Below, piece by piece: positions 3,791 to 23,835 of a stretch of DNA of 37,886 nucleotides. A program made the position numbers and the translations under genes. Location of the stretch: NCBI GenBank assembly GCA_002256025.1, contig NKIB01015162.1:1-37886 (forward strand), written 5' to 3'. The notes under the pieces are model-generated. The model searched no databases and had not been told where the DNA came from. It was given only the letters and a program-made list of their open reading frames with translations. Numbering within the stretch: the first letter of the stretch is position 1; each line of letters starts with the position of its first letter. The stretch is from Asterionella formosa. Lineage: Eukaryota.

Positions 3791-4019
3791 CAGGGGCAGT
3801 GATGATGGGAAAGCAATGGAAATGTAACTGGCAGTGGAATGATGGATGATGTGTTGAAGATAGTGAAAAAGGACTGGTAATATTGAAGTATTGCTTGTGT
3901 AATTTGGAGAAAATGAGTGAGCAAAATCAGCGAGCCTTGATATTACACTGTTATGTACTCCTATGCTGTATTAGGTATACCGGTATGTACATGTACCCCG
4001 ATCCAACAACAATACACCG

Positions 4020-4260
4020 GTACCTGTGTTTACAATTTTTTGTACCGGCTACATATACTGGTAAATACCAGAGTGCGCTATACCTGAATGTGACAGGTGC
4101 GGGGTACCTGGTACCTGGTACTGTAGTAGACGCTACAGTATTCCTCCTCCTACCTGGTACCAGTACCGCTACTAAAACGAAACAGATGCATGCTGCATGA
4201 CAGCGGGTTGATGGTGAGACAGAAACATGTTGCTGGTACTCCAGGTACCTGGTACCTATG
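4020..4260. repeat. Cluster of GGTACC/(CCTGGTA)n short repeats
   Basis: ggtacctggtacctggtac at 4103, tacctggtaccagtacc at 4151 and ccaggtacctggtacct at 4241. Confidence 0.75.
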
Positions 4261-6555: not shown

Positions 6556-7399
6556 GGTGACGATTTGTACAGGGAATCCTAAATGTTACATTGAGGACGT
6601 TGGCTGATTGCAAAAAGAGAAAGTATCGTATATTTGGCTGTGCATTGTTTCCATTGGGCACAGCCAGATAGGAGGCAATGTTGAGATGCAGCATATCATG
6701 CAACCTTCGCAGTATTTATGCATACCGATATACCGGTACACTTTTACAAATAAAATAACGGTAGTATGATTCCTATTTGGGAATTAATTAGTTTTCAACG
6801 CAATTTGAAGCTGTCGTGGTGATAATCGGGCTGGCTGTGAATGAGGATATAAGATAGTAGGATTATCGTCACAGCATGCACACATACATACATGCATGGG
6901 AGTCATAGCTAGCATAGTATATAGTCATACATATAGCTATATATATTTACTGGAAAATATACATACAGCACAGCAGCCACAACAACATCACAACATCCTT
7001 CATTTGCTCACCAATTGTCACTAACCATGGTGCCAGCTCCCTACCAACAAAGAAAGCTCTTGTTTGTCCCACTGCATTGCAGAAGGAGCTGCAACAAACT
7101 GTTGCTATTGCTGTGATGGTCAAGATTTCTGTAGGACCTACAAGAATGACAATAAAGAATCTTCAATAGAAAATATACATACTTTATCATGGCGATCCCG
7201 CTTTTCAAGGTAGCATTGGATATTTGGAGTCTCACTCTGCTGAGGGGAAGGGGCCAGTTTGAAGATCTTTGGAGTAGATAGGAGGTGCTGAATACCAACC
7301 TCCCATGAAATGCAGGTAGAGTTTCTGCTTCTGATTTAGTGTAAAAAACTACTATTCACTGATTATCAAAACAAATATGTTGTTGGCTCTCAATTCACT

Positions 7400-7900
7400 A
7401 CAAGATCTCTTGCTGGCACTGGAATGAAAAATTCTCTGCTTTAATTACTGGTTGAACTCTCTTGAAGATGGCTTGGCTTGCTCTGATGAATTGGAAGAAG
7501 GCAGTAGCCTTTGGTTCCCAATTTTGACTTCCTGATGAAACTTTGACTTCTGGTAAACATGTTGAAGGCTATGACAATCATGTCTTAAAAAAGATACTTC
7601 AATACCAAAAGGGTAGAAATAGCTATGAAGATCCTTGCGACCCAGCTAATCATGTTGATGCTGATGAGGATGGAAAAAGCTATGATGATGCATCCTTGCG
7701 AACCAGCTAATGTTGATGAGGATGAGGACAAAGACAAGGACGAGGAAATTATAAGTGCTGTGGCATTAACTGATGATGTTGAGATGCCTGTGGATTATTT
7801 ATTCCATGATGATGACTGGGTTGGATTTCAAATATTTGGACCATTGCAAGAGATGAATTTCAAAACAATTCTTTTGCTAACAAACATAAGGTATTTGTGA
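7400..7900 (+). pseudogene. Possible degenerate coding remnant (gene or TE relic) with a ~57-bp internal duplication
   Basis: Protein-like fragments (DEDEDKDKDEE...MPVDYLFHDDDWVGFQIFGPL) broken by stops and frameshifts. 'gctatga..atccttgcga.ccagctaat..gttgatg' is duplicated at ~7622 and ~7679. Confidence 0.3.
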
Positions 7901-9646
7901 CATCTACAACGCCGATTATTGCACAGCTGCCAGAAAAAACGCTTTTCAAATATGCTCACCCAAATTAAATATTTGGGTGGCTCAATGTTGTGAATTCGGC
8001 TACATATATAGCTAATTTGAGGGAAGGACATGACATAAAAAATATTTTGCATCACAAAATATACTAAAATAGTTTCGTCAGCTTCCATGATTTATTTTAG
8101 AAACCCGCATACTAAGTTTTGGGGCAGACTAACAATATTTTGTGCATCAATCATCATCATCAACAACAATTATTATTCGCAAAGATCATATATCATTTCT
8201 TCAAATGAACAAAGTAAACTGAATATTCTATTGATGTCATGATATTGCTGTAATTGCTACCAGAAAAATATTTTGATTATATGGCTATCATAGCTAGTAC
8301 TATTGTTAGTTTATAAAATTGTGGAACAGGATTATGCTGACGAAATGGAAACAAGTGCGAAGATTGCGGAACAGGCGGAGCATGTTGATATGGAATCACA
8401 CCTCTTCTTTCTTGCTTGTGATAGCCTCCTTCTGGTCGTCTTTCTAGTATCAACCATTATTCTGCCACTTTCACTTGAATCACAGCAGTAGCTGCTGTTT
8501 CACTAGCGTCTGGTGGTCATGGCTGGTTGTTGACTGATTGTAGCATGACAAGCAATGATTCCTGCAAATAGTAGGGAGATGAATCGGTGTGAGTTGCTTA
8601 ATTGAAAACAATGATTGCAAAGCGCTCAGACCAATCGTTGTTGTTCTTACCTTATTTTGAATCTGAGATGTCAAAAGACATTTTTATTTCTCAAGCATGA
8701 TGAGCTACATAAATATTGTGAGTGTTTGCAATGAGCAAATAGCAAGACAATAGGCAGAATGAGACAACTAACAACATATAACACAATAAGCCAATAACAA
8801 AGCCTTGATAACGTCATTCATTTTCATTGAATCTTCAATTTTCTTTCATGGAAGGCTGTAATTTAGAGAGGAGTAAGAGGTGTGAGAAGAAGAAGCTAAA
8901 CCATGTAGACTCCACCATCATCAATGCGGTTTTCCGTATTTCAGCATATTTCACAATTGATGTGGCGCACCAAGAAGAACGATGATGAATGAGTCTATAA
9001 TTAGTTTAAAATGGGCGTGGACATTTATGCTCATTTCATAATACAATTTACCACACTCCTGTGAAATGAACCACAAAAATACTGGCGAGGTCTGCAGTGT
9101 TGTAGGTGTCTGCCAATTCAACTACCATTGCTTAGCAAGAGATAACCCACCTCAGTCCTGATACTCAGGATAATGCATAGTATCATCAATATGACCAAAT
9201 ATGCACTTAGTTTCCAGTAGATCAGTATGTACGGATATCTTCGTATATCATAACCTCAATATAAAATGACCAACATGACTGCCTGTCAAATATTCAACCA
9301 CCACCCGTTGCTGGTATGTATTTCATAACTGCACCTTAGGGCAGGACTAATGCATGCCATGTTTTCTGCCATAATCTCAGAAATTGAATGCTTTTAGATG
9401 TCATTTCTTCTCAATATTAATGATACTTAGCACCAGGATTAATATAGAGTATTGAACACTGCACCTGGTAGTGTACATACCCGAGTTACATACTACATTC
9501 ACCTATAGGCAAAGCTTAACCCTTTAAATATACAACACCAAAGAGAGGCAGCACTTGAAATTATATTGTGCAGTATTTCAGTACAATTGATAACATAAAA
9601 AATTTGCTTTCTTTAGGAATGGCAGTCAAGAATCAAACCCTAATAT

Positions 9647-11269
9647 TTATTGAGGTCGCCACCTCTTCTCGTTTGGGGTCAATCCAATCTTGCCGAATCC
9701 CAAAAAGTCATCGTGATGGAGTAATCCATCTTTTGATGCGTCCATTGCGCCAAATAACAAGTCCACTTCGGCGTCAGAGACCGTACCAGAAAGGCGAGCT
9801 CGTTTGAGCTCCTTTCGAAAATGATCCTTTGACAAGGGTTCCCCTTTGTCAAGCGCTGTCTTGACGGTAAAATCCAAAGCGCACATGTCGCTTAGGGCGC
9901 TATTGAGCGTTTCAATCTCAAATATTCGTTGGGCCGCACGTTTCTGCATGGTTTTGCCACTGACATAATTCATGCAACCTCCAAAGACAGCAATACCAAC
10001 CCCAACCGTTGACGCAACGACGACTTGGAACATATAAGGGTGATGTTCGAACCCGTTAATTAGGTTCATTCCGTAGAACCCTGCCACAGTGGTGCCAATT
10101 CCAAACGTAAGTCCAGTAATTCCAAGGTATAGGTTCATTCGGATCAATCTGTTACGATAGCCTGATAAAGCTAAAGCGACAAATTCTTGTTTGCTCTGCA
10201 GACGTTGAAGGAGGAATTGGATCTCAAAGAGTGTATTATTGAGCTGTCTTGCATACTCTTCCAGAATGAGTTCAACATCAGCGTGCCGACTGCGGGGCAC
10301 TTCCCTTCCTGCGGATTGCGCCTCGTGCTGCTGCGTTATCAGGAGCCCAAGCATGTCGTCGTCATTTCCTAGAAGTTCCATGAGACAGTCCCTAGACTGT
10401 CGTACTTGCATTTCAAAACTTTGGAGAGAATCCTTGAGAGGAGGTAAAAGATGCACGCCCGAATCCGAGAAAATTTCGCTAGAAACCTTGTTCAAGAGAG
10501 AGTCAACAATCGGTTCGTACAATCTAATCCTTCGGTTGAACCCATCACAGGCATCTTGGAGAATTTCTTCCAAGATGATAAGTTCAAAAGGTTCATCTGC
10601 ATACTGAAATATCGTTGGTTTAGCATTGTCACAAGAAATTTGTTTGCTGGACTTCTTTTCTAGTGTTCTTGCCAAATCCCGAGCAAACTGCTTGGTGTTC
10701 ACGTTGTGGGCATCAAAGATTAAAACTGAATTAATAGCGATCATGGCCCGGAGGTTTCCAAAGGAAACCAGCACTTCTTCCCCACGTGGTAGAATTACCG
10801 AAACTGGTCGTCTCGGTGCACCGTGATGGTGCCGATATCGTTCCTGCTTGCTTGTTAAGGACAGGGAGAATAAATCCCGAGCATATACATTCGACGATTT
10901 ACTAAGAATTTCAGATAGCAGCAAGGAATTCATAACGATGCTTCCATCCATTCCTACTTTTGCAACTTTGTAGGAAGGTGGATTGTGCGTGGCTTGGCCT
11001 GGTATCTTTGCCGTGGGGACACTCGATGGCGACAATATACTTGAGGTTGCAGCATTTGTATTGCCTTCTGCGGAGGAGAAACATCGCAATGATATTCTAG
11101 CTATTTCCCTTTGTTGATATCCATTTATTATTGTCGGTCTATTGGGCCATTGATAAGCGGATCTCGTAATGCATGAGTTGGGCTCGGGAATTATCCGTCT
11201 ACAGGCGACAGGAAGGCGACGAATCATGTTCATGTTGCCCGGCATGAGCGTCATTGCTCCCTTCTTCAT
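9647..11269 (-). CDS. MRS2: MRS2/CorA-family magnesium channel, probably mitochondrial, with C-terminal EF-hand
   Basis: ARDL motif, 'EPFELIILEEIL', 'LLGNDDDMLGL', 'VELILEEYARQ' and 'RNRLIRMNL', then two hydrophobic helices joined by the GMN signature (AGFYGMNL). The N-terminus is Arg-rich and acid-poor, ending 'LRCFSS' like a mitochondrial presequence. The exact start Met is uncertain. Confidence 0.93.
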   Translation of the reverse strand: MKKGAMTLMPGNMNMIRRLPVACRRIIPEPNSCITRSAYQWPNRPTIINGYQQREIARISLRCFSSAEGNTNAATSSILSPSSVPTAKIPGQATHNPPSYKVAKVGMDGSIVMNSLLLSEILSKSSNVYARDLFSLSLTSKQERYRHHHGAPRRPVSVILPRGEEVLVSFGNLRAMIAINSVLIFDAHNVNTKQFARDLARTLEKKSSKQISCDNAKPTIFQYADEPFELIILEEILQDACDGFNRRIRLYEPIVDSLLNKVSSEIFSDSGVHLLPPLKDSLQSFEMQVRQSRDCLMELLGNDDDMLGLLITQQHEAQSAGREVPRSRHADVELILEEYARQLNNTLFEIQFLLQRLQSKQEFVALALSGYRNRLIRMNLYLGITGLTFGIGTTVAGFYGMNLINGFEHHPYMFQVVVASTVGVGIAVFGGCMNYVSGKTMQKRAAQRIFEIETLNSALSDMCALDFTVKTALDKGEPLSKDHFRKELKRARLSGTVSDAEVDLLFGAMDASKDGLLHHDDFLGFGKIGLTPNEKRWRPQ

Positions 11270-12507
11270 ATTCTAAATTGTACATACTGGTATAATACTT
11301 AAGATATGAGGATGTTCTGGTACTGCTGGAGAAGCAAATATTAAAATTTCTGCATTTGAACCCCTAGCTCGAGGTAGGGTTAGGTAAAATATTGAGTCAG
11401 ACTTATCAAACACGTACTTTTCAAAACATATAACGCTCATCGAAGCTTTCACCATTAGACACCACCCTTTCCATAAGATATACTTCCATACAGTCTTCAG
11501 ACATTGTACATAGGTCAATAAGACAAGATTTGTGGCTGAAGTGGTTATTCATAGTACTTTCACCAACAGTAAGAATGTTGAAATATAGCCAAAGTGTAAA
11601 GCAGCTTTGACTTTATAAAAAAAAAAGATATATTTGGAATCAGTTTCTTGTAAATGCTTCAGTTTGCACAAGACAAAAGCTCAAACAGGCAGTGTGAGGC
11701 ATGGTTGTATGTAGCCTTGCTGTCTTGCATGGATTTCCAAGTGTACCTCTTTGGGGCTCATGTCAAAATTATCAATCAAATCTTATACTAGTACATTAAA
11801 GCTATCCAAAAATCGCACTCGTGCCCAAATAAATGAATAAATGGACACAATTAGTACCGGTTTTCTGAAATTGGACCAAGCACCATGTCAAGGTGCAATG
11901 ATGATTCAATAGAGGCGAGATATTATTTTATTTGGTACTTCTACTCCTAGTATAGTAAGTCAATGAATTATTGGAGATATTTGGAAAAGTCATGTACCTG
12001 GTCCTAGTCAGCATACAGGACATGTAAATTGTTTTGGCAAAGTTTGCTTCAAATTTAGAGTGACACCCCCACCTTTTCATGCATAATTTAGCTTTTCCAT
12101 GTGGATGGTTTCTTTGGGGAGTTGTTTTCAAGAGTTAAAGTGACATTTTCATCTGGAGATTCTGAAAGTACAAGTACTCTAGCATGCGGAAAGGGCGTTT
12201 CAAAAGTAAAAATCCATGTTCAATTGCTCCATTATATTATATAAATTGGTATCACCTTGCTTTTTAATGTAAAATTGCATGTGATCTAGTTGTGTAGTAT
12301 GACTATTTCTGGCCTGTCATCAATGTGACAAAATAGCCGCTGACCAGACTCATCAGCAAAATTTTGACCCATTATGAAGTTAGCTAGCCAACTGAAATAA
12401 TGCATTGTGGCTTGGACTGTTTAAGTTAATATGCATCATCAGGTGAACTAGTACAAGCCTGACTTGGATTTATTTGTTCCACATTTTGTAATTAGATACC
12501 TATAACT

Positions 12508-13436
12508 TTATTTGGCTCTCTCCGAAAATTCTCCCTTGTCAGTGTCTACCTTGATTTTTTCTCCTTGTTCCAAGAATCCAGGGACCATAATAGTAGCACC
12601 ACAATCCAAGAGAGCTGGCTTGACATAATTATTGACAGTTGCTCCCTTGAGATTGGGGTCCGTTTCTACAATAGTATAGATCATCGGAGAAGGAACAACG
12701 ACTTCAATGATTTTATCATTGAACCACACCAATTGAATTTCCATCCCCTCCGATATCCATTTTGCCCTGTCACCCACCTGTTTGGCACTGACAGCAACTT
12801 CCTCAAACGTTTCCGTGTCCATAAAGAAGAAGTTGTCATTCTATCGACAAATATAATATACAAGTGTGAATATATAAAGTAGTGAAATAAGCCGAAAATA
12901 GTACACTGCCCAAGAAATATACATCAACAGCAATCGCAAAACTTACCTCCGCATAAGTGAATTGAGCCTTTTTCTTTTCAATCAAGGCTGTTTCAAATTT
13001 TTCTCCCGATCGGTAAGTATTTTCAATGGTATTTCCTCTGGCCTGTGTACAAGATAAAAAAGACAACAACAGCAACACAAACAGATGATTTGTTAGTTGG
13101 AACCAAACGGATCGACAATGGAAAAGTAAAACCTAATTTCCTGCACATCCACGTAAAATATAGTATAGTACGTACCAAATTCTTAAACTTGATGGTAGTT
13201 TTGGCAGCACCTCGTGCTTGTTTCATAATACTAAAGGAAAGTACTTTGTAGGGCTCATTGTCAATATTCAAGGTCATGCCATTTTTAATTTCGGATGTAT
13301 CGACCGCAACCGAAAGAGCCGATCCACAACGACGATGGGCCGTCACTGCTGATGGAGGGATCACCATGAAGGCCGCCGTCATGGTGGTTGTGGTCATCAA
13401 GGCCAAGAACGAGAACGTTGCGAATGAATGAAGCAT
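12508..13436 (-). CDS. efp: Plastid-targeted elongation factor P, 3 exons (13436-13176, 13042-12947, 12840-12508), ~229 aa
   Basis: The spliced product reads EIKNGMTLNIDNEPYKV...KFKNL/ARGNTIENTYRSGEKFE...QFTYAE/NDNFFFMDTETFEE...ETDPNLKG...KPALLDCGATIMVPGFLEQGEKIKVDT, matching EF-P domains. Both GT-AG introns are phase 0. A signal peptide is followed by a 'TAA-F' ASAFAP-like motif. Confidence 0.95.
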
Positions 13437-14428
13437 ACTGATGGTGGGGGAGCGGAGAACAAATGTAGCACTTCTGTAGATCGAGCTACAACAACAAAAT
13501 GTGAACAAGACAGGAAGAGTAAAACCGGTATAGGTAGCTATATTCTCTCTCTGTCTTGATGCATGTTGTTTCAAAATACAGGTATACCGGTACCTGATAA
13601 TACCAGCACTGTAGTTTCATCGGGTTAATAGTACCTGGTACCAGGTACACGTACTACAGGTACACAGTGCCATCAGTTCGCTCCGCTTGTTTGGTGGTTT
13701 TTGTTTTCCACCATCCATCCTGGATCCAGGATATTCATACGCATGATGTCCTTTTCAACAATGAGGTCATAGGTTAACTTCGTACCCTGGTACCTGGTAC
13801 GGTACCTGGTACCATGAAGTCAAGAGTGTAAACTAACTGTAAGAAATAAAAATGTCCAGCTATATCTATATATATATAGATACAGAATAAATATTTATCC
13901 CAATGAAATGTATGCATTTATGAATAAATATCCCAGTATAACATGGAAACAGCTCTTCCCCCAGAATACTTCCACACGGAGGTCTGCTTGATTCGTTTCC
14001 TGAACAACCCGGAGGTTCACTCAATGCCATTCATTCGCTCGTCACTTCCCCTGACGGATGAAAGCGCTTTGTTGCTTATCATCTAACTTAGCGATCATGT
14101 AGGTACGGTACTTGAACTATTTATTACCTGGGAAGAATGAACGATGTAGCTACGGTATTAGTATATGATGGACCGCGATGCTATGATTTTCTATGTAACA
14201 TTCTTGTTGTTACCACTCCGAGTCTCTGATAAATATTCTGTTCCGCGTACGGTGTAGGATAGCATGTCCTCTGCTGGCTTTGGAGTTGCTGCACACATCA
14301 ACGACGACTACTCCTCTCCTACGACTAGACTATACATTCTTCGTCTCAAGTGTTGAGATTGGTCGACCCATTCACAGAATACATCAATAGACACACAACA
14401 TTCATTCATTACTATTGATCAAGCACAA
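13437..14428. promoter_or_regulatory. Putative bidirectional promoter region between efp and ABC-F
   Basis: 992-bp spacer between divergent start codons, with perfect palindromes at 13631-13648, 13717-13732 and 13863-13882 and GGTACC clusters. Promoter function is inferred from position. Confidence 0.55.
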
Positions 14429-17383
14429 ATGAGACATTGTGTTGGTGCGCTGTTGCTGTGGGTAACAACAGTTCATTCGTTTAGTGTTCTTCCGACAACC
14501 ATCACACATTCAACTACAGCTTTGTTGGCCAAGCAAAAGAAGCTCAGCGTCGACGCCTTTGCCTTTGACGATGACGACGACGATCAACCGAAATTGTCCA
14601 AGAAGGATTTGTTGAAGAAATTAAAGGGAGGCGACAATGCTGCCACTGCTGCCACTGCTGCTGTTCTAGAAAAGAAGGAACCGTCAGTTCCGACAATATC
14701 CGATGACAAATCAAAAAATAAAAACAGCAATGACTCAACGGAGATGAGTGCGAAGATGAAGAAAATGCTGGCCATGGATGCCTTGGATGCAGCACAACAA
14801 GAATCCAGCAGCTCTACTTCAGAAAAGGAACCAAAGTTATCGGGAAAAGAACAAAAGGCATTGCAGAAGAAATTAGAAAAGGAAGAAGAACGTTTAGCCA
14901 AAAAGGCTGCCAAGAAATTGGCTGGTCCTGTGCTTGATGGGAAGGACGACGAGGAAGTAGCAGTCGTTGACAAGGAAGAACCTCTCACGCCAATGTATCA
15001 GCACGTCGAAGAAGTACGTTTTAATGTTTCCCTCTCCTGCTGGCATGGAATTCCCATATGTATTATGCATTATGCATATGCTTTTGACTCGCACATTTGC
15101 ACTCACACAATTACTCACTCACTCAATTGCACTTACACTCACTCTATCGTCACAAACAAACATACACACACGAATTTATATTTACATAATTAATAAACTG
15201 AATACATCAGCCCATGCTTCCACCGGACCATGAAACATTGGAAGAAAAGATTCGAAAGGAACGTCCTCCACCTCGCATTCGTGTAATGGAATCGTCCCAA
15301 CCTGGATATGCTGCCTTGAGATTGGAACAAGTGGGAATCACCTTCCGAGATCAACAAGTACTGCAAGACGTCACGTGGGGAGTGCAAACAGGAGATCGGA
15401 TTGGATTGGTAGGAGCTAATGGCGCGGGAAAAACTACGCAATTGCGCATTTTGGCAGGGGAGTTGGAACCCACGACTGGAGATGTCGTCAAGAGTAGTAA
15501 AGATTTGCGTGTGACCATGTTGCGACAAGAATTCGTAGATGAATTGGTTCGAGAACGCACCTTGCGAGAAGAATTTATGAGCGTCTTTACCGAAGAAGCC
15601 AAATTGTTGGAAGATATTCGTGAGGCCGAACGAGAACTGGAGACAATGACAGAAGCCGATTCAGATCGGATGCAGATTATTTTGGACAAGATGCAAGATT
15701 TGCAAGGCAAGGCGGATGCCAAGGGTGTATATGCCTTGGCAAGCCAAGTACAAAAGATCATGGACTTGATGGGATTCACCGAAGACGAAGGAGACGATCT
15801 TGTAGCGAGTTTCTCGGGGGGATGGAAAATGAGAATTGGTCTAGGCAAAGTTTTGCTCAAGGATCCAAACATTCTCCTTCTTGATGGTGCGTAGGATAAT
15901 GTATGAGTATGTCAATGCGCATCTCATGAAAGCAACGAAAAGTCTTTAAAACCGTTTCCTAACCTTGAACTCGTTAACAGAGCCGACGAATCATCTTGAT
16001 TTGGAAAGTGTCGAATGGCTGGAAGAATTCTTGCGCCAACAAAAGATTCCTACAATTATTGTAAGCCACGATCGAGAATTTCTGGATCAAGTTTGCACCA
16101 AGATTGTTGATGCAGAAGGCGGCCTTTGTACTGAATACGATGGAAACTATTCGAGATTCCTTGCTCTCAAAAAAGGTACGTGGCCATTTGCTTGTCACTA
16201 ACATCTCTTTGGGTGCTCTTGCTAAATCGCATGCACTACACAGCTCGAACGGATGCTTGGCATGCGGCATATAATGCACAGCAAAAGAAGGTCGAGGAAG
16301 AATTGTCCTGGATCAGGAAGTTCAAGATTAAGCAGCCCCAAGCCGTCAAGCAGCGCCAAGCCAAGTTGGATAAAATGCCGTCGCAAGAAGACTACGTCCA
16401 GAAACCACCCTTTTTGGGCAAGCCCTTTCGCTTTAGATTTCCAGATGCACCTCGTCTTAGTCCGGAAGTGGCCGAAATTCGCAAATTATCTCATGCATAC
16501 CGTAACGGAGAAACCGCAAACACTCTATTTGATGAAGTGGAGCTGTTTATTGAAAAGGGAGACCGTATTGCCGTGGTTGGACCGAATGGATCTGGAAAAT
16601 CGACGTTGTTACGATTCCTCATGGGACGAGAAGCACCCGACTCGGGACAAGCGGAAATCATTGGTCAAAATGTGGATGCCAACTATTTCGAACAGAATCA
16701 AGCGGACGCGCTAGACTTGGACAAGACAGTGATGGAAACGGTCCAAGCAGCGAGTCAGGGGCAATCTTACAATGAAATGAGAGCCTTGCTTGGGCAGTTT
16801 TTGTTCAAGGGCGATTCAGTGGAGAAAAAGGTCAGATTCCTGAGTGGAGGGGAAAAGGCAAGGTTGTCCCTGTGCTGCATGATGCTCCGACCTGCGAATC
16901 TTTTAGTCCTTGATGGTTCGTAACGAAAGAGTGTGTGTGTTTCATATTACATTTTCGACCGCTATATTTTTCTCACTTCTTGACAACTTTCCATTTATAA
17001 CTGCAGAACCCACAAACCATCTTGATATTCCAGCGAAAGAAATGTTGGAGGAAGCCTTACAGCACTTTGCTGGTTCTGTCGTGGTTATTTCCCATGATCG
17101 ATACTTTATCAGTAAGGTTGCTACCAGCATTGTAGCGATTGAGGACAAGAAGTTGACAAAATATGAAGGGGACTACAAGTTCTATATGGAAAAATCCAAG
17201 TATATGCAAGAAAAGATTGAAGCCCGCTACGTCCAGGGAGTGGCCAGAATTGAATCTGCCCCTATTATTGATGTGGAAGCATTGCAAAAGCCAAAAGGTA
17301 ACTTTGGCGGTGCCAAGACAGCTGGATTGGTTACCAGGAAAGACAAGGGCATCAAGAATGCTAAGCGAATGGCACAAAGTTAG
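14429..17383 (+). CDS. Plastid-targeted ABC-F ribosome-associated ATPase (plant chloroplast ABCF5-like), 5 exons (14429-15013, 15211-15886, 15981-16175, 16244-16915, 17007-17383), ~834 aa
   Basis: Two ABC cassettes and no TM domain: Walker A GANGAGKTT and GPNGSGKST, signatures FSGGWKMR and LSGGEKAR, Walker B LLLDEPTNHLD and LVLDEPTNHLD, and SHDR twice. It ends in a C-terminal KNAKR. Signal peptide is followed by 'VHS-F'. The spliced length of 2505 nt stays in frame. Confidence 0.95.
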
Positions 17384-17630
17384 ATATCCAATTATTAGAA
17401 AACTAATGCATATTTACGACAAAGCATGACCCAGGAAATTAGTGTGAAGCAAGCATTATTATCAAGATATACATCTGTAGCGGCATTAGCAGCGCCACTG
17501 CGACGCTCGTCTAGGACAAACACCCGACATTTGCCTTACGTTTAGTTCACCCGACTCAAAGCACAGCGACCTTGACCATTGGACGATGGCCCATGTGGCG
17601 ACTGCTTCCTTCATGACAGATTGACAAACT

Positions 17631-20597
17631 CTATTTCATAGATTCTAGATTGCATTCCACGTCGAGAAGAATATTTTCAAGTTTCTCGAGCTCAGAAGGA
17701 ATCTTCGATGCATCCATGTATGCTTGCTTGATTTTGTTGATAACTCCTCGTAAAAGAAACCTGCACTTGATAAGGCTGTCCTTGCTACCATCACTGGTAT
17801 GAAAGTGCGAGATATGTGCCACAACTTGAATTACTTTTTGGACCTGAAACTGATCTGTCTCCCATCCCTTATACGCTTGAAGGGAGCGGTACTCTTTCAT
17901 AAGATTTTCAAGGACTTCCTCATCGCGACCGACAGCTTCGTTGAACATCGCAAAAGTTTCCCATACCCACGGCTCAGCCTTTGCACTAGAAGTCATCCTA
18001 TCCAGCAAGTCATGAAGACGAGACAAGGTCCTTCTCGCTGAGTCCAACGCCACCTTGTCCTCTCTGTGGTCTTGAAAAATCTTCAACGTGGCAACAACAA
18101 TGGCCCGAACACACTTTTCCTCCAGATCTGGAATCTTTTCGGCATAATTGGTGGTGGCCTTCAAGTCCAGCAGGGTTTGGCATGCTTGAATTGCCTCATC
18201 ATATTTCTTGAGGTCGATGCAGGTATACAGTTTGCTGTTCCATACCCTCCAGTTGTTACGATTGTATTTCAACGATTCATTCAAAGCTGGATATGCTTCC
18301 GACGGGTTCTTATTGTGCATATGAACTGCAGCTACGTTGGCCCATGCATCTGCTTCTTGTGGTTCTTGCTGAACAACCTCAGTAAATGCACTTAGTGCGG
18401 CTGCCCAATCCTTGAGCTGCATACTGATTGTTCCCAAGCGGAACCAAACACTTGGCAATAGGGGGCGTATCTTGACAGCTTTTCGGTAGTATTCGGCTGC
18501 TTTGACGATCTCACTTTGTTCAAAGTAAAATTTCCCCAAAGATACGTAGGCGTTGGAAAAGCGACCATTAGAAAGTTTCAGGGCTTTCTCATAGTGTTCT
18601 GGCTCGTTTGTAATGTCACCTAGGGCTGCCCACATTCTCGGTGTTTCCATTTTTGCCAATCGTTCCCTTACAATTTGCTCCGCTTTGCTAGACTTGCCAG
18701 CCCGCGTGTAACATTCCACGACTTCATCCCACATTTCAATGTCCGCAAAAATCTCGGCCGCGCTTGTAACAATTCCCATGGCTGCATATCGTTCCGCGAG
18801 GTCGGCTAGCATGGACCATCGCGGAGGGTAAACGATGATATGGAGGTTTCGGAGTCGGTCTTGGACAGGAGCTGACTCTTCGATACTTTCAAAGGTTGAT
18901 TGGGTAATTGTCAATCGATTTGTATGTTGATCACTCAAGGCCTGCATTTGGAGAATTGCACGCTCACGGCCATGCGATCGTTCAAATTCAAGCCATGATC
19001 GCTCCAGCAGCGCTGTGGAATACACCATCCAATCGTCATGGTGATCCAAAACTCTGGCCAAGTAAGCCCCCATTTGTTCGCCTGTTAGACCATCCGCCGG
19101 GTTGTTGTTTTTGACGTCAAGGCACAACGACAACAGAATCGCTTGATCCAGAATTGACAAATGTTGAATCTCATTCTCTTGTGTGTTATCATAATTGATT
19201 CGTTCCAGCAATATTTCTTCTTCTGAGTGCTCCACCATTTGCGCTTTAATCTTGCGCTTTTCCTCTTCGCTCCCTGTATTTGTTGGTCTTGTGCTTGAAA
19301 CAGCCTTCACCAGCATCTGAGCAGTGGCTTCCTGTTGAAACTTTGTTCGCTTTCCCACTGCTCCAGTCACCTCCACCTTGACCAATGAATAATCCATTGC
19401 CTTTTGAAAGGCTAACTTGCTATTCGGTTGATAAAAGTGATGCTGAGCCAAACCCCATTCCAACATTACAGTTGCTGCTTGCACGCGACGATCAAAGGTC
19501 TCATCATCAATTTCCATTTCCAAATTTGCACAAAATTTCGTGAGTATATTCGTTTGAAAGATATATTGTGTTTCATCCCACAACGTGACGCTCGCTTCTC
19601 CTTTTCGTGATTGAAGTAGACGCTGGTGAGCCACCACGGCACGAGCACTCCAAAGATGCACCGCAAAAAGTTGTGACGACGCCACAGCAAAGGACTCCGG
19701 TAGAATACTGTCTTGTATGTTATTATTGTTAGTAGTAGTGGTAGTAGTAGATCCGACTGCATGTGTCCATTGTGGTCGTGATGGGTTGGCAAGTGTTGCC
19801 AGAATGGATCTAGCCAACAACAAGAGGTACGGCACTTGGCATATTTGACTTGGCCAATCCCCATCCACTGCCAACTCGGTCAATACTGAGTTTTGATAAT
19901 TGGTATTCCTTCTTGGAGCCGTCAGCAAAAAATCGTTCTTTTCAGTGTCCTGCTCCTGGTCAGTGTCACCATGTAGCAATTTCACGAAACATGGGTGGGG
20001 ATCGATACCTCTGAGTGGATTTTTGCTCATTCCTAGGTCGTCATTCATCATGTGCTCCTTGGCCATCTTTTCCAACGAGGGTCCAGTGTAATTGAGTTGT
20101 AAGAACAAATTTAGAGCAGCGATTGCTAGAAATTCAACCTTGACACACGAAGTGCTGTCGGTGCAAATGGAAAGCACTCGGTCTCTTAATGTCGACGCAA
20201 CCAAGGTACCGGCAGTGCCTGATGGTTCCAATCCATGAAAGAATTCCTGGGCAAATGTCCCTCTAAGTATCTCACAATATTTCCCTTCTGCGAGGTAATT
20301 CTCAAGTTCCTGGATACTGCTGCTTGCAGCGTGTTCAGAGTGATGTTCTTGGGTATTTCTGTTACTTTGAGCAGCAGTATCATTAGCACTATAATGAACA
20401 GTAGCTCCATCCAAATTAAAAGAACAAGACAAGAGAACTCGTCGTTCTGCTGCAAGAGCAGATTCATCAAATGTTGTTGGCGTTGCAACGTTATCGAAAT
20501 CGACACCTGAAAGGTCTAGAGAGTCAAAGGCAAAGTCGCCATCACTGCTGCTGTCATCACTCTCATTCTTGCCAACATCGTGTTGCTGTTGTATCAT
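17631..20597 (-). CDS. TTC27: Tetratricopeptide repeat protein TTC27/Emw1-like, 988 aa
   Basis: FLQLNYTGP, GAVGKRTKFQQ and WMVYSTALLERSWLE...ERAILQMQAL motifs characteristic of TTC27, followed by several TPRs (e.g. WFRLGTISMQLKDWAAALSAF, AWANVAAVHM). Single-exon ORF. Confidence 0.9.
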   Translation of the reverse strand: MIQQQHDVGKNESDDSSSDGDFAFDSLDLSGVDFDNVATPTTFDESALAAERRVLLSCSFNLDGATVHYSANDTAAQSNRNTQEHHSEHAASSSIQELENYLAEGKYCEILRGTFAQEFFHGLEPSGTAGTLVASTLRDRVLSICTDSTSCVKVEFLAIAALNLFLQLNYTGPSLEKMAKEHMMNDDLGMSKNPLRGIDPHPCFVKLLHGDTDQEQDTEKNDFLLTAPRRNTNYQNSVLTELAVDGDWPSQICQVPYLLLLARSILATLANPSRPQWTHAVGSTTTTTTNNNNIQDSILPESFAVASSQLFAVHLWSARAVVAHQRLLQSRKGEASVTLWDETQYIFQTNILTKFCANLEMEIDDETFDRRVQAATVMLEWGLAQHHFYQPNSKLAFQKAMDYSLVKVEVTGAVGKRTKFQQEATAQMLVKAVSSTRPTNTGSEEEKRKIKAQMVEHSEEEILLERINYDNTQENEIQHLSILDQAILLSLCLDVKNNNPADGLTGEQMGAYLARVLDHHDDWMVYSTALLERSWLEFERSHGRERAILQMQALSDQHTNRLTITQSTFESIEESAPVQDRLRNLHIIVYPPRWSMLADLAERYAAMGIVTSAAEIFADIEMWDEVVECYTRAGKSSKAEQIVRERLAKMETPRMWAALGDITNEPEHYEKALKLSNGRFSNAYVSLGKFYFEQSEIVKAAEYYRKAVKIRPLLPSVWFRLGTISMQLKDWAAALSAFTEVVQQEPQEADAWANVAAVHMHNKNPSEAYPALNESLKYNRNNWRVWNSKLYTCIDLKKYDEAIQACQTLLDLKATTNYAEKIPDLEEKCVRAIVVATLKIFQDHREDKVALDSARRTLSRLHDLLDRMTSSAKAEPWVWETFAMFNEAVGRDEEVLENLMKEYRSLQAYKGWETDQFQVQKVIQVVAHISHFHTSDGSKDSLIKCRFLLRGVINKIKQAYMDASKIPSELEKLENILLDVECNLESMK

Positions 20598-21710
20598 GGT
20601 GCTGGTGGTGATGGGTTGGTTCTAGCTTGTTTGAAATAGATTTGAGCAAATGATCACTCCAAATCATAATTCATATAAATTACATGGATATAAATAAATA
20701 CTGGTCCACATCCTCGGTTACCGTTGCCTGGTGCCAGGGTACCGTACCTGGGCCAGGTAATGGTACCAGATACCTGGTACCTGGTACTACACTTTTTACC
20801 GTCATGATGTACAAGGTACCAGGTACCTGCACGTTGCGGTCATTTTGCTTAAATAAACAATTTAATATGGGATAAAATAAAGCTAAACTTTTCGTTTCAA
20901 CACAATTACCGCAACTCCTTCCTGGAGCCTGGCACTTTGGTTGTCGTCATCCAGAGACCGACCACTCCTTGCAGGTCGGTCAGAGAGGAGATACATTTTG
21001 TGGAGGGGATGCTAGGAGTGGTGTCAGATAGAGGTTGGTGGTGTGCGTGGTTGTTGGCGGAAAATGTCCACTTTCCGTAGAAACGGCCAGACACAAACAC
21101 TTGAAAATTTATGTGACGATTTTATCCTTCAAATGTCCTCGTTGAAGCTAGAAGGTCATTTCTTGTCGGAATCACCATTTCCATACATATAGGTACCAGG
21201 TATCATACTGATCCTCACTTGCATGCTTGTACTGTACATAATGGTTACCAGGTATTTAAGTATGTAGCTTCACGATGTTGTTGACTACGACATTTTATTT
21301 ATCTCAGGACATTACAACTGCAATGTGCTGACATCGAGCAATTAATTTACTATGCTGTATGCAGTCTCCTATTCAGTCCTCTACTGTACCTGCCTTTTTT
21401 TTGTTTACATGCAGCAGACATTATATAGACACAAAATTGCCACCTTATTCAACCCTCGCATGTGCCGGGTCATAACCGGACAAAGTTATCCGTACTGGTA
21501 CTACCAGGTACCAGGAAGCAGGATGCAGGGTACCGGAGTACATACTTATATACCGATATGTACGCGACGATGAATTCGCATCGATCAGGAGAAATGAAAT
21601 GCTTGATTTCATCTCGCGGCATACTGGTACTTTCGGTACTTCTACTAGAATGATGGAATACATTTCCTTCCATCTCTCTCGTTCCGCTTCACTTCCTTAC
21701 TGACAACAAG

Positions 21711-21736
21711 CACCACACCACACCACACCACACCAC
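21711..21736 (+). repeat. (CACAC)n microsatellite immediately upstream of the CRAL-TRIO start codon
   Basis: caccacaccacaccacaccacaccac directly before gccaccATG. Confidence 0.8.
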
Positions 21737-21742
21737 GCCACC

Positions 21743-22886
21743 ATGCCGATCAGCTTCTCTGCTCCTCGTATTGACGAAGAGGAAGTGAGGCGAGAAATTC
21801 AGGCCCTTCCACAGGAAGAACGAAATCGGGCCTACCAAGATCTCTACGGCGGCCTCGTTACTGTTGAGGAAACCCCGGCAATGCTCGATGGAGCGTTCAT
21901 GGAGCTACATGCAGCCATACAAAGAATTCCAATGCAGGAAAGTGAAGCCTATCGAGAGGCGTTGCGGATTTGTCCGCACTATGCCGGCAGCAACAATTTC
22001 AAACTCATGTTTCTGCGAGCTACGAATTATGATACCCAGGTACGTCGTGATTACTGGAGGATGGCTGTGTCTCTGTGGTTGAACTGCGGAACTCATCACA
22101 CCATTGAATTTGTATCATGATGGCCATCACCAGGCGGCTGCTCTTAGAATCACTGCTTATTGGCAAGAAAAGGTAAAGCTTTTTGGAATAGACCGGGCAT
22201 TTAGGAGACTTGGGTTGCAGGATCTGACCGAAGCAGAGCACGAAATTGCCCTGCGTCGAGGCGGTATACAGGCCCTGCCCGGTACCGATGCAGCTGGGAG
22301 AGGTATAGTCTTTTATGATAGAACCAGATGGGAGGCACGTCGATCGCATCGAGCCAGTATGGTGAGTTTGTTAGACAGTACTACCGTATATTGCTTCATC
22401 CTCTGTACAAAGACTCATACAACGGTTCATCCATGCTATATGTATTCGCAGTTTCGAGCACATTGGTATATTCTGCACTCTCTTATGGAAGGAAATCCAG
22501 TTGTACAAAAGAATGGACTTGTAATGTTGGTGTACACGTCTCCCAATGCGGAATTGGAGAGTTTTGACAGAAAAATGATTGTCACCATGATGAATCACAT
22601 GCGTCACGTCCTACCCATTCGGATAGTTGGATTCCATCATGTCATCAATAGCAGCATCATACGCTTAATCATGCCCCTCATTTACTACGTGCTTGGGTCA
22701 GAAGTACGGGCGAGGTACATACAACATATTGGCATGACAGGTGTACAAGTAATGGAAGCTCTGAAACAATTTGGATTGGTACAAGAACAGGTGCCTATTG
22801 AATTGGGAGGCCAGTATCAATTCGACTACGAAACTTGGATTGGGATTCAGCAACGAATAGAAAACAATACAACTGAGATTGGTTGA
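21743..22886 (+). CDS. CRAL-TRIO/Sec14-like lipid-binding domain protein, 3 exons (21743-22039, 22134-22361, 22452-22886), ~319 aa
   Basis: 'LMFLRATNYD..AA.RI..YW..K..LFG', 'GTDAAGRGIVF', 'QKNGLVML', 'LPIRIVGFH' and 'QVPIELGG' fit the CRAL-TRIO pattern. Splice sites CAG|GTACGT..CAG and ATG|GTGAGT..CAG keep the frame. Confidence 0.88.
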
Positions 22887-23835
22887 AGCAGCCACCAGAT
22901 TTGTATTCCGAACATACGCGTAAAACCGGTCGTTTCATACCATAATGACCTGATATTGTTATTCAAGCATCATGATATCGGTTGAACCGTCAACTTTGAC
23001 ATTGGAGTCATTTTAAGGTAAAAAATATATAAAGGGAATCATAGTAAAATTGTTCATCCCTTCTTACCTGATATCATAAGACTAAAAGCACTTTCTCTCA
23101 GTAGAATTCGTTCAAGTTCCACATTTGCCACAATATTTTGGCCAAGTGTAGTACCGGTAGGTACTAGACAACCCCTTCCTTCCTCCTCAGATGATAATCT
23201 GTTCCAACCACACACTTGTACCACAGAAACTTTTTGCTTTCTCACACGGATATTTTGAAAAACATAAATCGCATCACATACACTAATATTAAATAATAGA
23301 TCACTAGGTATGGACCGAATTCCTGTATACATCGGTAGGCATATATGATTCAAAATAGACCACGAACAATTAAAAAATATAGAAACGAAAAAAATCCAAG
23401 TCTTGTTTGTCATTTTCAGTAAAAGGTAACTTCTTCTATTAACCATCCGCACGACAACGCAAGGTGACCCCAAACCACCAAATCAACTTCCTTGTGCACT
23501 AATATTACCGGTAATAGTCGCCCCTTGTATGTACAAAATTATTGGTCTACCGGTACCACAACATTTATCAATTTACCAGTACCAGAGGTAGTTGCATTTC
23601 ATAGAGTTTCGGCTGGTCCTGCTTATTCTACCACCTACCTTCAAGATCATCAGATGTTTGATTACTAGATGACAACAATACTGGAAAAGTTATGCTCAAT
23701 AGCGTAGATGATGCGATCTGCTGTTCATCTGATGCATGCGTAACGCTGCACGCTTGTTGTAGGTGACCAAAGTATTCGGTATTGACTGTCTACATCATAT
23801 TTGACTATTGGTAGTTTCAGACATATAATAAAACG

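Follow-up and report, generated by a model that had tools for sequence, protein, structure and literature searches.

The head-to-head arrangement of an elongation factor P (EF-P) gene and an ABC-F ATPase gene in the diatom Asterionella formosa raises the question of whether the two are held together by a joint role in plastid translation or are chance neighbors. The window analyzed here is the 37,886-nucleotide stretch of contig NKIB01015162.1 (assembly GCA_002256025.1). The initial annotation placed efp on the minus strand and the ABC-F gene on the plus strand, diverging from a 992-bp spacer, and our gene models, Pfam matches, and RNA contig joints all agreed with this layout (Table 1). All six introns of the two genes were seen as RNA contig joints across four runs from three studies, with one EF-P intron joint missing in run X7.

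Table 1. Coordinates of the EF-P/ABC-F locus within the window
Feature	Position	Strand	Remarks
EF-P 3' UTR	12407..12507	-	To the limit of the RNA contigs, whose ends are approximate transcript ends only; X1 record 1 starts at 12407
EF-P exon 3	12508..12840	-	110 codons plus stop; OB and C-terminal domains
EF-P exon 2	12947..13042	-	32 codons; RNA joints 13041/13175 and 12840/12947
EF-P exon 1	13176..13436	-	Codons 1-87; Pfam EFP_N 2.2e-11; RNA contig cover
Arg75 codon CGA	13212..13214	-	Loop-tip site; bacterial EF-P has a modified Lys (KPGKG) there
Divergent spacer	13437..14428		Exactly 992 bp, ATG to ATG
GGTACC(W)GGTAC clusters	13630..13814		Two clusters of a heptamer-like motif; imperfect inverted repeats ~150 bp apart
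ABC-F exon 1	14429..15013	+	195 codons; signal peptide, transit-like stretch, extension
ABC-F exon 2	15211..15886	+	TLEEKIRKERPPPRIRV block; ABC domain 1; Pfam ABC_tran 1.4e-21
ABC-F exon 3	15981..16175	+	Walker B/E, H-loop, start of interdomain linker; RNA joint 15885/15980
ABC-F exon 4	16244..16915	+	Linker and ABC domain 2; ABC_tran 1.2e-21, ABC_tran_Xtn 2.8e-07
ABC-F exon 5	17007..17383	+	Second Walker B/E, H-loop, basic C-terminal tail

The ORF listing, sequence reading, and splicing yielded an EF-P gene of three exons encoding 229 amino acids, with introns of the form GTACGT..CAG (133 nt) and GTAAGT..TAG (106 nt). Exon 1 encodes a signal peptide ending in MTAA before Phe23, a transit-like stretch extending to approximately residue 45, and the first part of the KOW-like domain, while exon 3 matched the Pfam families EFP (9.6e-16) and Elong-fact-P_C (1.8e-20); the Pfam matches cover the full three-domain architecture of a KOW-like N domain, an OB domain, and a C-terminal domain. 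Against the NCBIfam efp equivalog (TIGR00038; cut-off, 185.8 bits), separate exons scored 33.8 bits and, for exon 3, 126.7 bits. Full-length diatom orthologues, which are 64 to 71% identical to the window protein over exon 3, scored 206.8 to 212.1 bits.

The EF-P loop encoded in exon 1 reads MKQARGAAK (Met71 to Lys79), and the modifiable loop-tip Lys of E. coli- and B. subtilis-type EF-P (KPGKG) is absent from the window protein. The same loop was found in all 37 diatom-type EF-P sequences; the loop tip of diatom plastid EF-P is Arg, not Lys. Given Arg75, the window protein is an Arg-type EF-P, and still a member of the EF-P family. By the loop definitions for Arg-type EF-P and EfpL given in the accessible text of PMC11611912, the diatom protein resembles the EarP-rhamnosylated Arg-type EF-Ps in having an Arg-tipped beta3-omega-beta4 loop and in lacking a Pro three residues upstream. 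Its ARGAA also resembles the EfpL (YeiP) loop SPTARGAAT (PMC11611912), although the diatom loop is not lengthened in the alignment, and the diatom orthologues score as canonical efp, reaching only 121 to 126 bits on the EfpL profile (cut-off, 216). No grouping of diatom EF-P with the sampled bacterial Arg-type sequences was seen in a FastTree phylogeny.

On the other side of the spacer, the ORF listing and splicing gave an ABC-F gene of five exons and four GT..AG introns, encoding 834 amino acids; a database protein of the same length (P0001) is identical to this model except for the last residue. Exon 1 encodes a signal peptide ending in VHS before Phe18, followed by a Ser/Thr-rich transit-like stretch and a Lys/Glu/Asp-rich extension that matched no Pfam family. 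Exon 2 encodes a block conserved in the ortholog alignment (TLEEKIRKERPPPRIRV) and the first ABC domain, which carries a Walker A motif (GANGAGKT), an arm-like helical insert, and the signature FSGGW, with its Walker B/E motif LLLDEPTNHLD split by the intron between exons 2 and 3. The second domain has GPNGSGKST (Walker A) and LSGGEKAR (signature) in exon 4 and VLDEPTNHLD split by the intron between exons 4 and 5, and the protein ends in a conserved basic tail, FGGAKTA..VTRKDKG.KNAKR. Two ABC_tran domains and an ABC_tran_Xtn linker in one chain identify the product as an ABC-F protein, and it has no transmembrane domain, its sole hydrophobic stretch being the N-terminal signal peptide. The catalytic motifs are intact in both domains (GANGAGKT/GPNGSGKS, FSGGW/LSGGE, LLLDEPTNHLD/LVLDEPTNHLD, and SHDR twice) and invariant across 11 orthologues. 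With the catalytic Glu and the Walker A motif preserved in each domain, the protein is predicted to be ATPase-competent.

Both proteins also carry putative plastid-type presequences, in agreement with the initial annotation: a signal peptide with Phe directly after it, as is typical of plastid import in diatoms. In the window models, the EF-P N terminus is MLHSFATFSFLALMTTTTMTAA followed directly by Phe, and that of the ABC-F is MRHCVGALLLWVTTVHS followed directly by Phe. A Phe after Ala, Gly, or Cys occupies the aligned position in all 31 N-terminally complete diatom EF-Ps, and a small residue followed by Phe lies within positions 10 to 28 of each of the 11 aligned ABC-F orthologues. For Phaeodactylum tricornutum, a supplement to PMC5859163 lists EF-P as "Chloroplast, high confidence" by ASAFind and as chloroplast by HECTAR; the ABC-F (EG02207) is listed as chloroplast by HECTAR and as "Other" by ASAFind, with a SignalP score of 0.415. 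These patterns suggest that both proteins would reside in the plastid stroma.

Since the function proposed for the pair depends on which ABC-F is present, we compared the window protein with known subfamilies. A search of the PDB returned, as its best solved relatives, the ribosome-binding ABC-Fs YheS, EttA, YbiT, and Uup, with Uup (260 bits) scoring below the other three E. coli paralogues. Identity with Uup/YfmR was rejected on two profiles (358.8 bits on NF050005, cut-off 900; 360.7 bits on NF008358, cut-off 936), as was identity with EttA (403.6 bits against an NCBIfam cut-off of 599). Over residues ~205 to 780, the window protein is 46 to 51% identical to ABC-Fs of Cyanobacteria and Melainabacteria. 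One cyanobacterial ABC-F is 49% identical to it (508 to 514 bits), whereas the other ABC-F in the same two genomes is only 33 to 34% identical (271 to 282 bits). Among the 80 bacterial loci kept from a scan with two peptide patterns, and hence in a biased sample, all those at least 37% identical had cyanobacterial or melainabacterial titles, save a few labeled uncultured bacterium, Gracilibacteria, or Marinoscillum. The window ABC-F is therefore orthologous to a single cyanobacterial ABC-F type and of cyanobacterial ancestry.

Given this orthology, it probably belongs to the published cpYdiF class rather than to Uup/YfmR, a label that draws on cyanobacterial affinity and the published description. 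Murina et al. (2019; PMC6723617) describe cpYdiF as a bacterial-like algal ABC-F that forms a clade with cyanobacteria, is predicted to be chloroplast targeted, and has a single representative in each of the diatom genomes listed (P. tricornutum, P. multiseries, and T. pseudonana). The window protein likewise groups with cyanobacterial ABC-Fs over other bacterial subfamilies and has a predicted chloroplast-targeting N terminus. It differs in its 165-residue Lys/Glu/Asp-rich N-terminal extension and basic C-terminal tail, neither of which is described in the accessible text of that paper; the same text is silent on gene neighborhood and EF-P.

These assignments bear directly on the proposal in the initial annotation that the locus is a co-regulated stall-rescue module, in which an ABC-F overlapping in function with EF-P, and driven with it from one bidirectional promoter, relieves proline-rich stalls on the plastid ribosome and buffers the loss of EF-P. 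B. subtilis provides a precedent insofar as EF-P and housekeeping ABC-Fs share a bacterial-type ribosome and interact genetically: YfmR cooperates with EF-P (PMC10895253, PMC11381351), and leaky expression of YfmM or YkpA partially suppresses the efp yfmR double mutant (PMC11381351). However, the buffering partner in that system is YfmR/Uup and not the ABC-F type found in the window, and diatoms have a separate algUup (PMC6723617). The proposed overlap with EF-P is also weakened, as B. subtilis YdiF is reported not to buffer EF-P loss and to interact with efp in the sense opposite to YfmR (PMC11381351). As far as the accessible texts of PMC11381351 and PMC10895253 go, linkage to efp is not reported for YfmR, YkpA, YfmM, or YdiF. 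Even with the conservation and expression data described below, we consider the stall-rescue proposal unlikely.

The opposite sense of the YdiF interaction brings in a second scenario, in which a YdiF-type ABC-F and EF-P would compete for the plastid E site and linkage would keep their dosage balanced, so that an EF-P defect would be eased rather than aggravated by losing the ABC-F. In B. subtilis, the swarming defect of an efp mutant is indeed suppressed when ydiF is lost, and the efp yfmR double mutant fares worse when YdiF is overexpressed (PMC11381351, citing Hummels and Kearns). The cyanobacterial-type, probably cpYdiF, character of the diatom protein, its intact catalytic Glu and Walker A residues, and the titles of solved structures, which put its relatives on the ribosome, would all fit such competition. 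Nevertheless, cpYdiF and B. subtilis YdiF correspond by subfamily name only, YdiF being a paraphyletic grouping according to Murina et al. (PMC6723617), and different co-expression modules (below) argue against tight dose coupling. We regard this antagonism as quite improbable.

Whether the pair is peculiar to A. formosa was addressed by synteny, the check that the initial annotation had called for. The genes diverge in an Amphora-like metagenome contig (L001; ATGs at 3816 on the minus strand and 4321 on the plus strand, 504-bp spacer) and in a Bacillariaceae-like metagenome contig (L018/L019; ATGs at 1552 on the minus strand and 2096 on the plus strand, 543-bp spacer). In P. tricornutum, J41511 (chr_31, 47977-48773) and EG02207 (chr_31, 49475-52114) are 701 bp apart, strand not given. 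P. multistriata has consecutive accessions (VEU38473.1/VEU38474.1) on one 267,851-bp contig, and N. inconspicua has two pairs (KAG7352936/KAG7352934 and KAG7366988/KAG7366986), each on one contig with one accession between, strand again not given for either species. EF-P and ABC-F are thus adjacent in at least six pennate lineages, and the junction was retained in every pennate lineage examined. In the ABC-F tree, the window clade falls beside the raphid pennates within a pennate clade (99% SH-aLRT). Synteny did not extend to Thalassiosirales-like sequences: no EF-P lies beside the ABC-F in contig L015, where the 5 kb upstream hold a different, 899-aa ORF, and none lies in the 6.6 kb downstream of the ABC-F in contig L014. 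Since a Thalassiosirales-like contig lacks the pair, the pairing is not universal in diatoms, which also counts against the stall-rescue proposal. EF-P was likewise found near the orthologous ABC-F in none of the 80 bacterial loci, a mainly cyanobacterial set (flanks of up to 6 kb).

In contrast to the junction itself, the surroundings were not conserved. Comparison of the window flanks with L001, L018, and L019 by tblastx gave no real match, the match between L001 and L019 was confined to the two genes, and the Pfam families in the flanks differed between the window and its relatives' contigs, where the flanks available were short (0.7 to 3.7 kb). Its recurrence in other pennates, where the flanks are not conserved, means that the adjacency is no chance feature peculiar to A. 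formosa. Consistent with the initial annotation, which knew of no such arrangement in algae, literature searches found no published description of the pair. EF-P/ABC-F is a real, conserved, and unreported same-pathway gene pair, whereas its description as a rescue module is unproven.

An adjacency this old could still be neutral: the genes may have become neighbors by chance in a pennate ancestor and stayed so because a spacer of 0.5 to 1 kb is a small breakpoint target, their functions being related only via plastid translation. Absence of the pair from the Thalassiosirales-like contig and from 80 of 80 bacterial loci fits this explanation, as do spacers that vary in length (504, 543, 701, and 992 bp) and share no motif, different expression modules, and the post hoc choice of the pair from a genome-wide reading. 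It accounts less well for a junction kept in every pennate examined when, among L001, L018/L019, and the window, no flanking junction within view (flanks of 0.7 to 3.7 kb) was kept, and products that act at the same site on the same ribosome would be an unlikely coincidence for random neighbors. We consider this neutral explanation rather unlikely.

The reading that we prefer, with a probability of roughly 0.55, is that the locus is an ancient head-to-head nuclear pair of pennate diatoms, encoding two factors for the plastid ribosome and kept via a shared 5' region. EF-P is a full three-domain protein of an unusual Arg-tipped type that would serve the bacterial-type ribosome of the plastid, and the ABC-F is a cyanobacterial-type protein, most likely cpYdiF, with a plastid presequence added in diatoms and the Lys/Glu/Asp-rich extension. 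The pair would have formed in the nucleus after gene transfer, rather than being inherited as a bacterial operon, and would have stayed joined while surrounding genes reshuffled, most likely because a break within the shared 5' intergenic region of 0.5 to 1 kb would tend to damage both promoters. Selection may act on the linkage. In many eukaryotes, a short divergent spacer is more likely to be retained than other junctions are, so retention alone is no proof of a functional tie. Since each of the two proteins is expected to act at the E site, they could not occupy one ribosome together.

The spacer and its transcription are consistent with a shared bidirectional promoter in some respects. The ATGs lie 992 bp apart, within the geometry of bidirectional pairs (divergent, starts less than ~1 kb apart), and the spacer contains no ORF of at least 60 aa in the ORF listing. 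RNA covers 13437-13522 (EF-P 5' UTR) and 14230-14428 (ABC-F 5' UTR), and the ~700 bp in mid-spacer have zero cover or low-depth repeat cover only. RNA contig 5' ends, which are rough starts, fall at 13497-13522 for EF-P and 14230-14374 for the ABC-F, ~700 bp apart; the 5' end of a fourth contig falls within the coding sequence, at 14459. As for co-expression, which the initial annotation proposed to check, both genes were present in four of four RNA runs, from contigs that cannot rank expression levels, an observation that also favors the stall-rescue proposal. The P. tricornutum orthologues fall in different WGCNA modules (midnightblue/ivory versus steelblue), so one tightly shared transcriptional program is not shown; this tells against stall rescue, even though the PhaeoNet authors group ivory and steelblue in one translation- and genome-related subset. 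Nor did the cis-elements expected of one promoter emerge: only one 8-mer was common to the three spacers, within the range obtained by shuffling (mean, 0.4; maximum, 3), and hence no motif beyond chance.

A comparable divergent pair in P. tricornutum, nitrate reductase and a chloroplast-targeted protein, likewise has nuclear genes with a short common 5' region and plastid-targeted product(s) (PMC6779911). For its putative bidirectional promoter, motifs in common and a joint response to nitrate are reported (PMC6779911), unlike the EF-P/ABC-F spacers and the module assignments of the P. tricornutum orthologues. Within the A. formosa spacer, RNA contigs from elsewhere terminate with loose ends in the region of the GGTACC(W)GGTAC repeats.

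The window is eukaryotic DNA with short GT..AG introns, as judged from the ORF listing, sequence reading, and splicing. The initial annotation had placed EF-P (-) and an ABC-F ATPase (+) back to back across a 992-bp spacer, and the gene models bear this out, with the start codons 992 bp apart and the spacer at 13437-14428. Pfam recognized three EF-P domains on the EF-P protein and two ABC domains plus an ABC-F linker domain on the ABC-F. Both spliced transcripts were present in RNA contigs from four runs of three studies (labeled lake or fresh water or algae), and all six introns appeared as contig joints, one of the EF-P introns being absent from run X7. The 5' ends of these contigs, which are rough transcript ends, fall at 13497-13522 for EF-P and 14230-14374 for ABC-F, leaving ~700 bp without solid cover, a gap that does not count as silence; depth is not comparable between the genes, and the contigs cannot rank their expression.

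Coordinates of the features discussed in the text
Feature	Coordinates	Strand	Remarks
EF-P gene	exons 13436-13176, 13042-12947, 12840-12508	-	229 aa
ABC-F ATPase gene	exons 14429-15013, 15211-15886, 15981-16175, 16244-16915, 17007-17383	+	834 aa
ABC-F N-terminal extension	14531-15013 and 15211-15225	+	residues ~35-200; 39% K+E+D, recurring LSKKE-like words
ABC-F basic C-terminal tail	17250-17380	+	FGGAKTA..VTRKDKG.KNAKR, conserved
EF-P Arg75 codon	13212-13214	-	beta3-omega-beta4 loop tip; loop codons 13200-13226
GGTACC(W)GGTAC sites	4103-4256, 13630-13813, 20763-20827, 21193-21512, 31553, 34150-34681, 37784		both strands counted

A few single-base differences from the window (14698, 15285, 15534, and 17510) were seen in the RNA contigs, and a contig of run X1 carried 17 loose A's just beyond the EF-P transcript on its 5' side (plus-strand 13499), possibly a library artifact. 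The database ABC-F protein P0001 is identical to the ABC-F model except for its final residue, ending in ...MAQN versus ...MAQS before the TAG (17378-17383) of the window; this mismatch may reflect an allelic variant or a different last splice. ABC-F contigs also extend beyond 17700 into the convergent TPR gene (17631-20597, -), as in a 5960-nt contig of X1, so the two genes meet or overlap at their 3' ends; a contig spanning both does not establish one single transcript.

The pairing recurs in other pennate diatoms. A metagenome scan returned 21 loci, 5 of them genomic contigs with flanks that derive from three organisms, whereas the remaining 16 are at most 3.1 kb long, carry ABC-F alone (most are ~2.6 to 3.1 kb, intron-less, and transcript-like), and are uninformative on neighbors; the scan patterns missed longer JGI contigs carrying P0004, P0007, P0081, and P0107. 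Contig L001 encodes an ABC-F sharing 91% identity with the Amphora coffeaeformis protein; upstream of it, an EF-P gene runs on the other strand, and a 504-bp spacer separates the two ATGs, at 3816 (-) and 4321 (+). The same arrangement, with a 543-bp spacer, was found in L018 and L019, which come from one organism closest to Nitzschia/Bacillariaceae. Database records agree as far as position, without strand, is concerned: the P. multistriata proteins VEU38473.1 (EF-P) and VEU38474.1 (ABC-F) are adjacent by accession on one 267,851-bp contig, in N. inconspicua, each of two contigs carries a pair whose accession numbers differ by two (KAG7352936/KAG7352934 and KAG7366988/KAG7366986), and on P. 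tricornutum chr_31 the EF-P orthologue Phatr3_J41511 (47977-48773) and the ABC-F orthologue Phatr3_EG02207 (49475-52114) are separated by 701 bp. The expected synteny did not extend to the Thalassiosira-like contigs L014 and L015 (one organism, ~84% identical to Thalassiosira), where no EF-P was found within 5 kb upstream or 6.6 kb downstream of ABC-F and the upstream position is taken by a same-strand ORF of 899 aa that is unrelated. Just one of the two orthologues was identified in each of six further taxa: EF-P in Seminavis (Sro585_g171000), Triparma (GMI31735.1), and Pelagophyceae CCMP2097 (KAJ1461369.1), ABC-F in Cylindrotheca (CAJ1948138.1) and Cyclotella cryptica (KAL3781666.1), and a single orthologue in Skeletonema.

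Conservation stops at the edges of the pair. When the whole window was compared with the five eukaryotic loci, matches were confined to 12485-17389, barring two noise segments; tblastx of 6000-12507 and 17384-24000 against the same loci gave no match, and the similarity between L001 and L019 is likewise limited to the EF-P and ABC-F genes, over visible flanks that are short (0.7 to 3.7 kb). The two segments judged to be noise, of 27 to 28 bits, form a weak match to L001 near ~33.1 kb of the window. The neighboring genes of the window pair encode MRS2-like and TPR proteins; those in L001 encode a rhomboid and a weak Tic110-like protein. The pairing is thus conserved within pennate diatoms, and the flanking genes are not. 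In a maximum-likelihood tree of ABC-F (27 rows), which follows diatom phylogeny, the window and four other sequences group next to the raphid pennates with 98% SH-aLRT, within a pennate clade supported at 99%, a position that fits an araphid-grade pennate and implies that the pairing goes back at least as far as the sampled pennates. The pair is not a bacterial operon: among 80 bacterial loci, searched over flanks of up to 6 kb, none had EF-P near the orthologous ABC-F. That the linkage is a neutral accident seems unlikely to us, although it is the strongest of the alternatives; were it neutral, this would be a conserved divergent pair of the ordinary kind.

In diatoms, import into the stroma is marked by a signal peptide followed by an aromatic residue (the ASAFAP motif, the basis of ASAFind). 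Signal plus ASAFAP-type presequences had been claimed for both proteins, and these were found: the EF-P begins with MLHSFATFSFLALMTTTTMTAA and then F, and the ABC-F with MRHCVGALLLWVTTVHS and then F, so that in each case a hydrophobic signal peptide is followed by Phe and a Ser/Thr/Ala-rich stretch. Of 37 aligned diatom-type EF-Ps, 31 are N-terminally complete, and all of these have the Phe (preceded by Ala in 16, Gly in 14, and Cys in 1); a small residue plus Phe follows the hydrophobic stretch in 11 of 11 aligned ABC-F orthologues. For P. tricornutum, published predictions (PMC5859163) give the EF-P a SignalP score of 0.833, a Phe, "Chloroplast, high confidence" from ASAFind, and chloroplast from HECTAR; the ABC-F is given a SignalP score of 0.415, "Other" from ASAFind, and chloroplast from HECTAR, the ASAFind call being due to the SignalP score of only 0.415. 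Plastid targeting is accordingly a well-supported prediction for EF-P and a probable one for ABC-F.

The ABC-F appears to be ATPase-competent, insofar as Walker A, signature, Walker B-Glu, and H-loop are intact in both nucleotide-binding domains and invariant across 11 orthologues. It reaches no NCBIfam equivalog of an E. coli paralogue, scoring 404 bits on EttA (cutoff, 599) and 359 bits on Uup (cutoff, 900), and the solved structures are about equally distant from it (YheS, 297 bits; EttA, 289; YbiT, 285; Uup, 260). A prokaryote scan with one genome per species returned 80 loci, a sample that is biased because only two peptide patterns, taken from the diatom alignment, were used; loci at least 37% identical nearly all bore cyanobacterial or melainabacterial titles, with 46 to 51% identity over residues ~205 to 780. 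Since in two cyanobacterial genomes the matched ABC-F was 49% identical (508 to 514 bits) and the other ABC-F 33 to 34% (271 to 282 bits), the diatom protein is orthologous to one specific cyanobacterial ABC-F. Four cyanobacterial matches seemed to contain 3.6-kb "insertions"; these proved to be an artifact, the true matches being ~1.6 kb and the excess consisting of neighboring weak ABC hits. Murina et al. 2019 (PMC6723617) describe a class of just this kind, cpYdiF, that is single copy in P. tricornutum, P. multiseries, and T. pseudonana, with separate algUup, algEttA, and algAF1. The window ABC-F is probably cpYdiF, an assignment made by orthology and class description.

Relative to its cyanobacterial orthologues, the diatom ABC-F adds the presequence and a ~165-residue Lys/Glu/Asp-rich extension, which the orthologues do not have, which differs in length between diatoms, and which matched no family in a Pfam search. 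An RPPPR motif just N-terminal of ABC domain 1 (residues 213 to 217; 15250-15264) is invariant in 11 of 11 diatom orthologues; it is a polyproline motif in a gene that itself undergoes cytosolic translation.

The E-site region of the ribosome is occupied by EF-P and by ABC-Fs, and ribosome-bound ABC-F entries among the solved relatives of our protein agree with E-site binding. Since both use the E site, the two cannot act simultaneously on one ribosome; the expectation is a common ribosomal site, not binding of one factor to the other. We favor, at a probability of roughly 55%, a retained divergent pair, in which the short shared 5' region would limit rearrangement and two E-site factors would be supplied to the plastid ribosome. 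The initial annotation had instead envisaged functional overlap of the Uup/YfmR type. Its bacterial background is sound, in that YfmR (Uup) and EF-P cooperate in B. subtilis and their double loss is severe (PMC10895253 and PMC11381351), but the transfer to this pair is not supported, given that the ABC-F falls far below the Uup cutoff, is of cyanobacterial type, and is probably cpYdiF. The true diatom counterpart of YfmR may be the separate algUup. In B. subtilis, YdiF overexpression aggravates the efp yfmR mutant, and ydiF loss of function suppresses the efp swarming defect (PMC11381351). If the diatom ABC-F acts like its subfamily namesake, it might compete with EF-P instead of duplicating its role; these efp-ydiF genetics are what speaks for an antagonistic dose balance, which we nevertheless consider the least probable account of the linkage.

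A co-regulated rescue module was the original proposal, and it bears on expression. Both genes were expressed in all four RNA runs. In PhaeoNet, a P. tricornutum WGCNA study (PMC7596299), EF-P belongs to midnightblue, which is merged into ivory, the module enriched in chloroplast ribosomal proteins, whereas ABC-F belongs to steelblue, where ribosome and tRNA biogenesis and nucleotide metabolism are overrepresented; the authors put ivory and steelblue in one subset, "transcription, translation and genome repair." Different modules within a common subset imply that expression of the pair is not unrelated, yet is no tight pair. In a second data set (diel and iron; PMC5156380), a gene table that may be a subset places ABC-F in the turquoise module, labeled chloroplast, and does not include EF-P. 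A k-mer search of three spacers yielded one common 8-mer, within shuffle range, and nothing above chance. Co-regulation is weakly indicated, and a co-regulated rescue module is improbable, somewhat more so than neutral linkage.

The EF-P has its own peculiarity. Its loop reads MKQARGAAK in place of the bacterial KPGKG, which puts Arg where bacterial EF-P has modified Lys, and this loop is identical in all 37 diatom-type sequences. Among EF-Ps with presequences, related K[QT]AR loops are also seen in Parmales/Triparma, Pelagophyceae CCMP2097, and Chromera velia, and KPGKG is retained in other extension-bearing EF-Ps. Published work (PMC11611912) describes Arg-type EF-Ps that are rhamnosylated by EarP and have no upstream Pro, as well as EfpL, with an unmodified Arg in SPTARGAAT. 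Like the EarP-type proteins, the diatom EF-P has no upstream Pro, and its loop length is canonical; unlike EfpL, it scores as efp. It did not join the sampled bacterial Arg-type sequences in a low-resolution tree, and we found no paper on EarP and EF-P in plastids, subscription journals and bioRxiv supplements lying outside the search. The nearest non-stramenopile relatives tabulated by PhaeoNet are "Prokaryotes, Proteobacteria" for EF-P and red algae for ABC-F (PMC7596299), which hints that the two come from different evolutionary sources. Arg-tipped EF-P across ochrophytes and Chromera poses a separate question, namely, whether and how plastid EF-P is modified.

A more ambitious version of the story, which we offer as speculation and hold to be doubtful, is that a two-gene nuclear unit dosing mutually exclusive plastid E-site factors predates the raphid/araphid split and has been retained by pennates; it would pair an Arg-tipped EF-P (perhaps unmodified, or carrying a modification not yet described) with a cyanobacterial YdiF-type ABC-F, the linkage being selected as their ratio would matter, via cooperation or via the antagonism hinted at by B. 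subtilis efp-ydiF. If true, it would be the first eukaryotic selected gene neighborhood for organellar translation-elongation quality control. While cpYdiF and plastid EF-P are already known separately, and divergent, possibly co-regulated diatom pairs are on record (nitrate reductase with a chloroplast-targeted protein; PMC6779911), the EF-P/ABC-F linkage, which the initial annotation did not know to be described in algae, was found in no paper searchable outside subscription journals and bioRxiv supplements. The handling of hard-to-translate sequences by plastid ribosomes is scarcely studied, and a 2026 preprint calls it yet to be explored (10.64898/2026.05.28.728419); the conserved pennate pair points to two candidate partners. 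The interest is chiefly that of a cheap, sharp test: with Phatr3_J41511 and Phatr3_EG02207 701 bp apart in a transformable model diatom, knockout and reporter tests are straightforward, and the outcome would tell whether bacterial efp/ABC-F genetics, and with which sign, carries over to an organelle.

The EF-P/ABC-F spacer also contains a repeated motif, GGTACC(W)GGTAC, which occurs 26 times in the window (at most 1 mismatch, both strands; shuffles expect 0.01) and was not seen in the L001 or L019 spacers. Its clusters are intergenic and mostly on the 5' side, another lying upstream of the TPR gene. We rejected a single MITE family, as the copies share the motif and no internal sequence; possible readings of the motif are a short tandem heptamer and an element associated with promoters.
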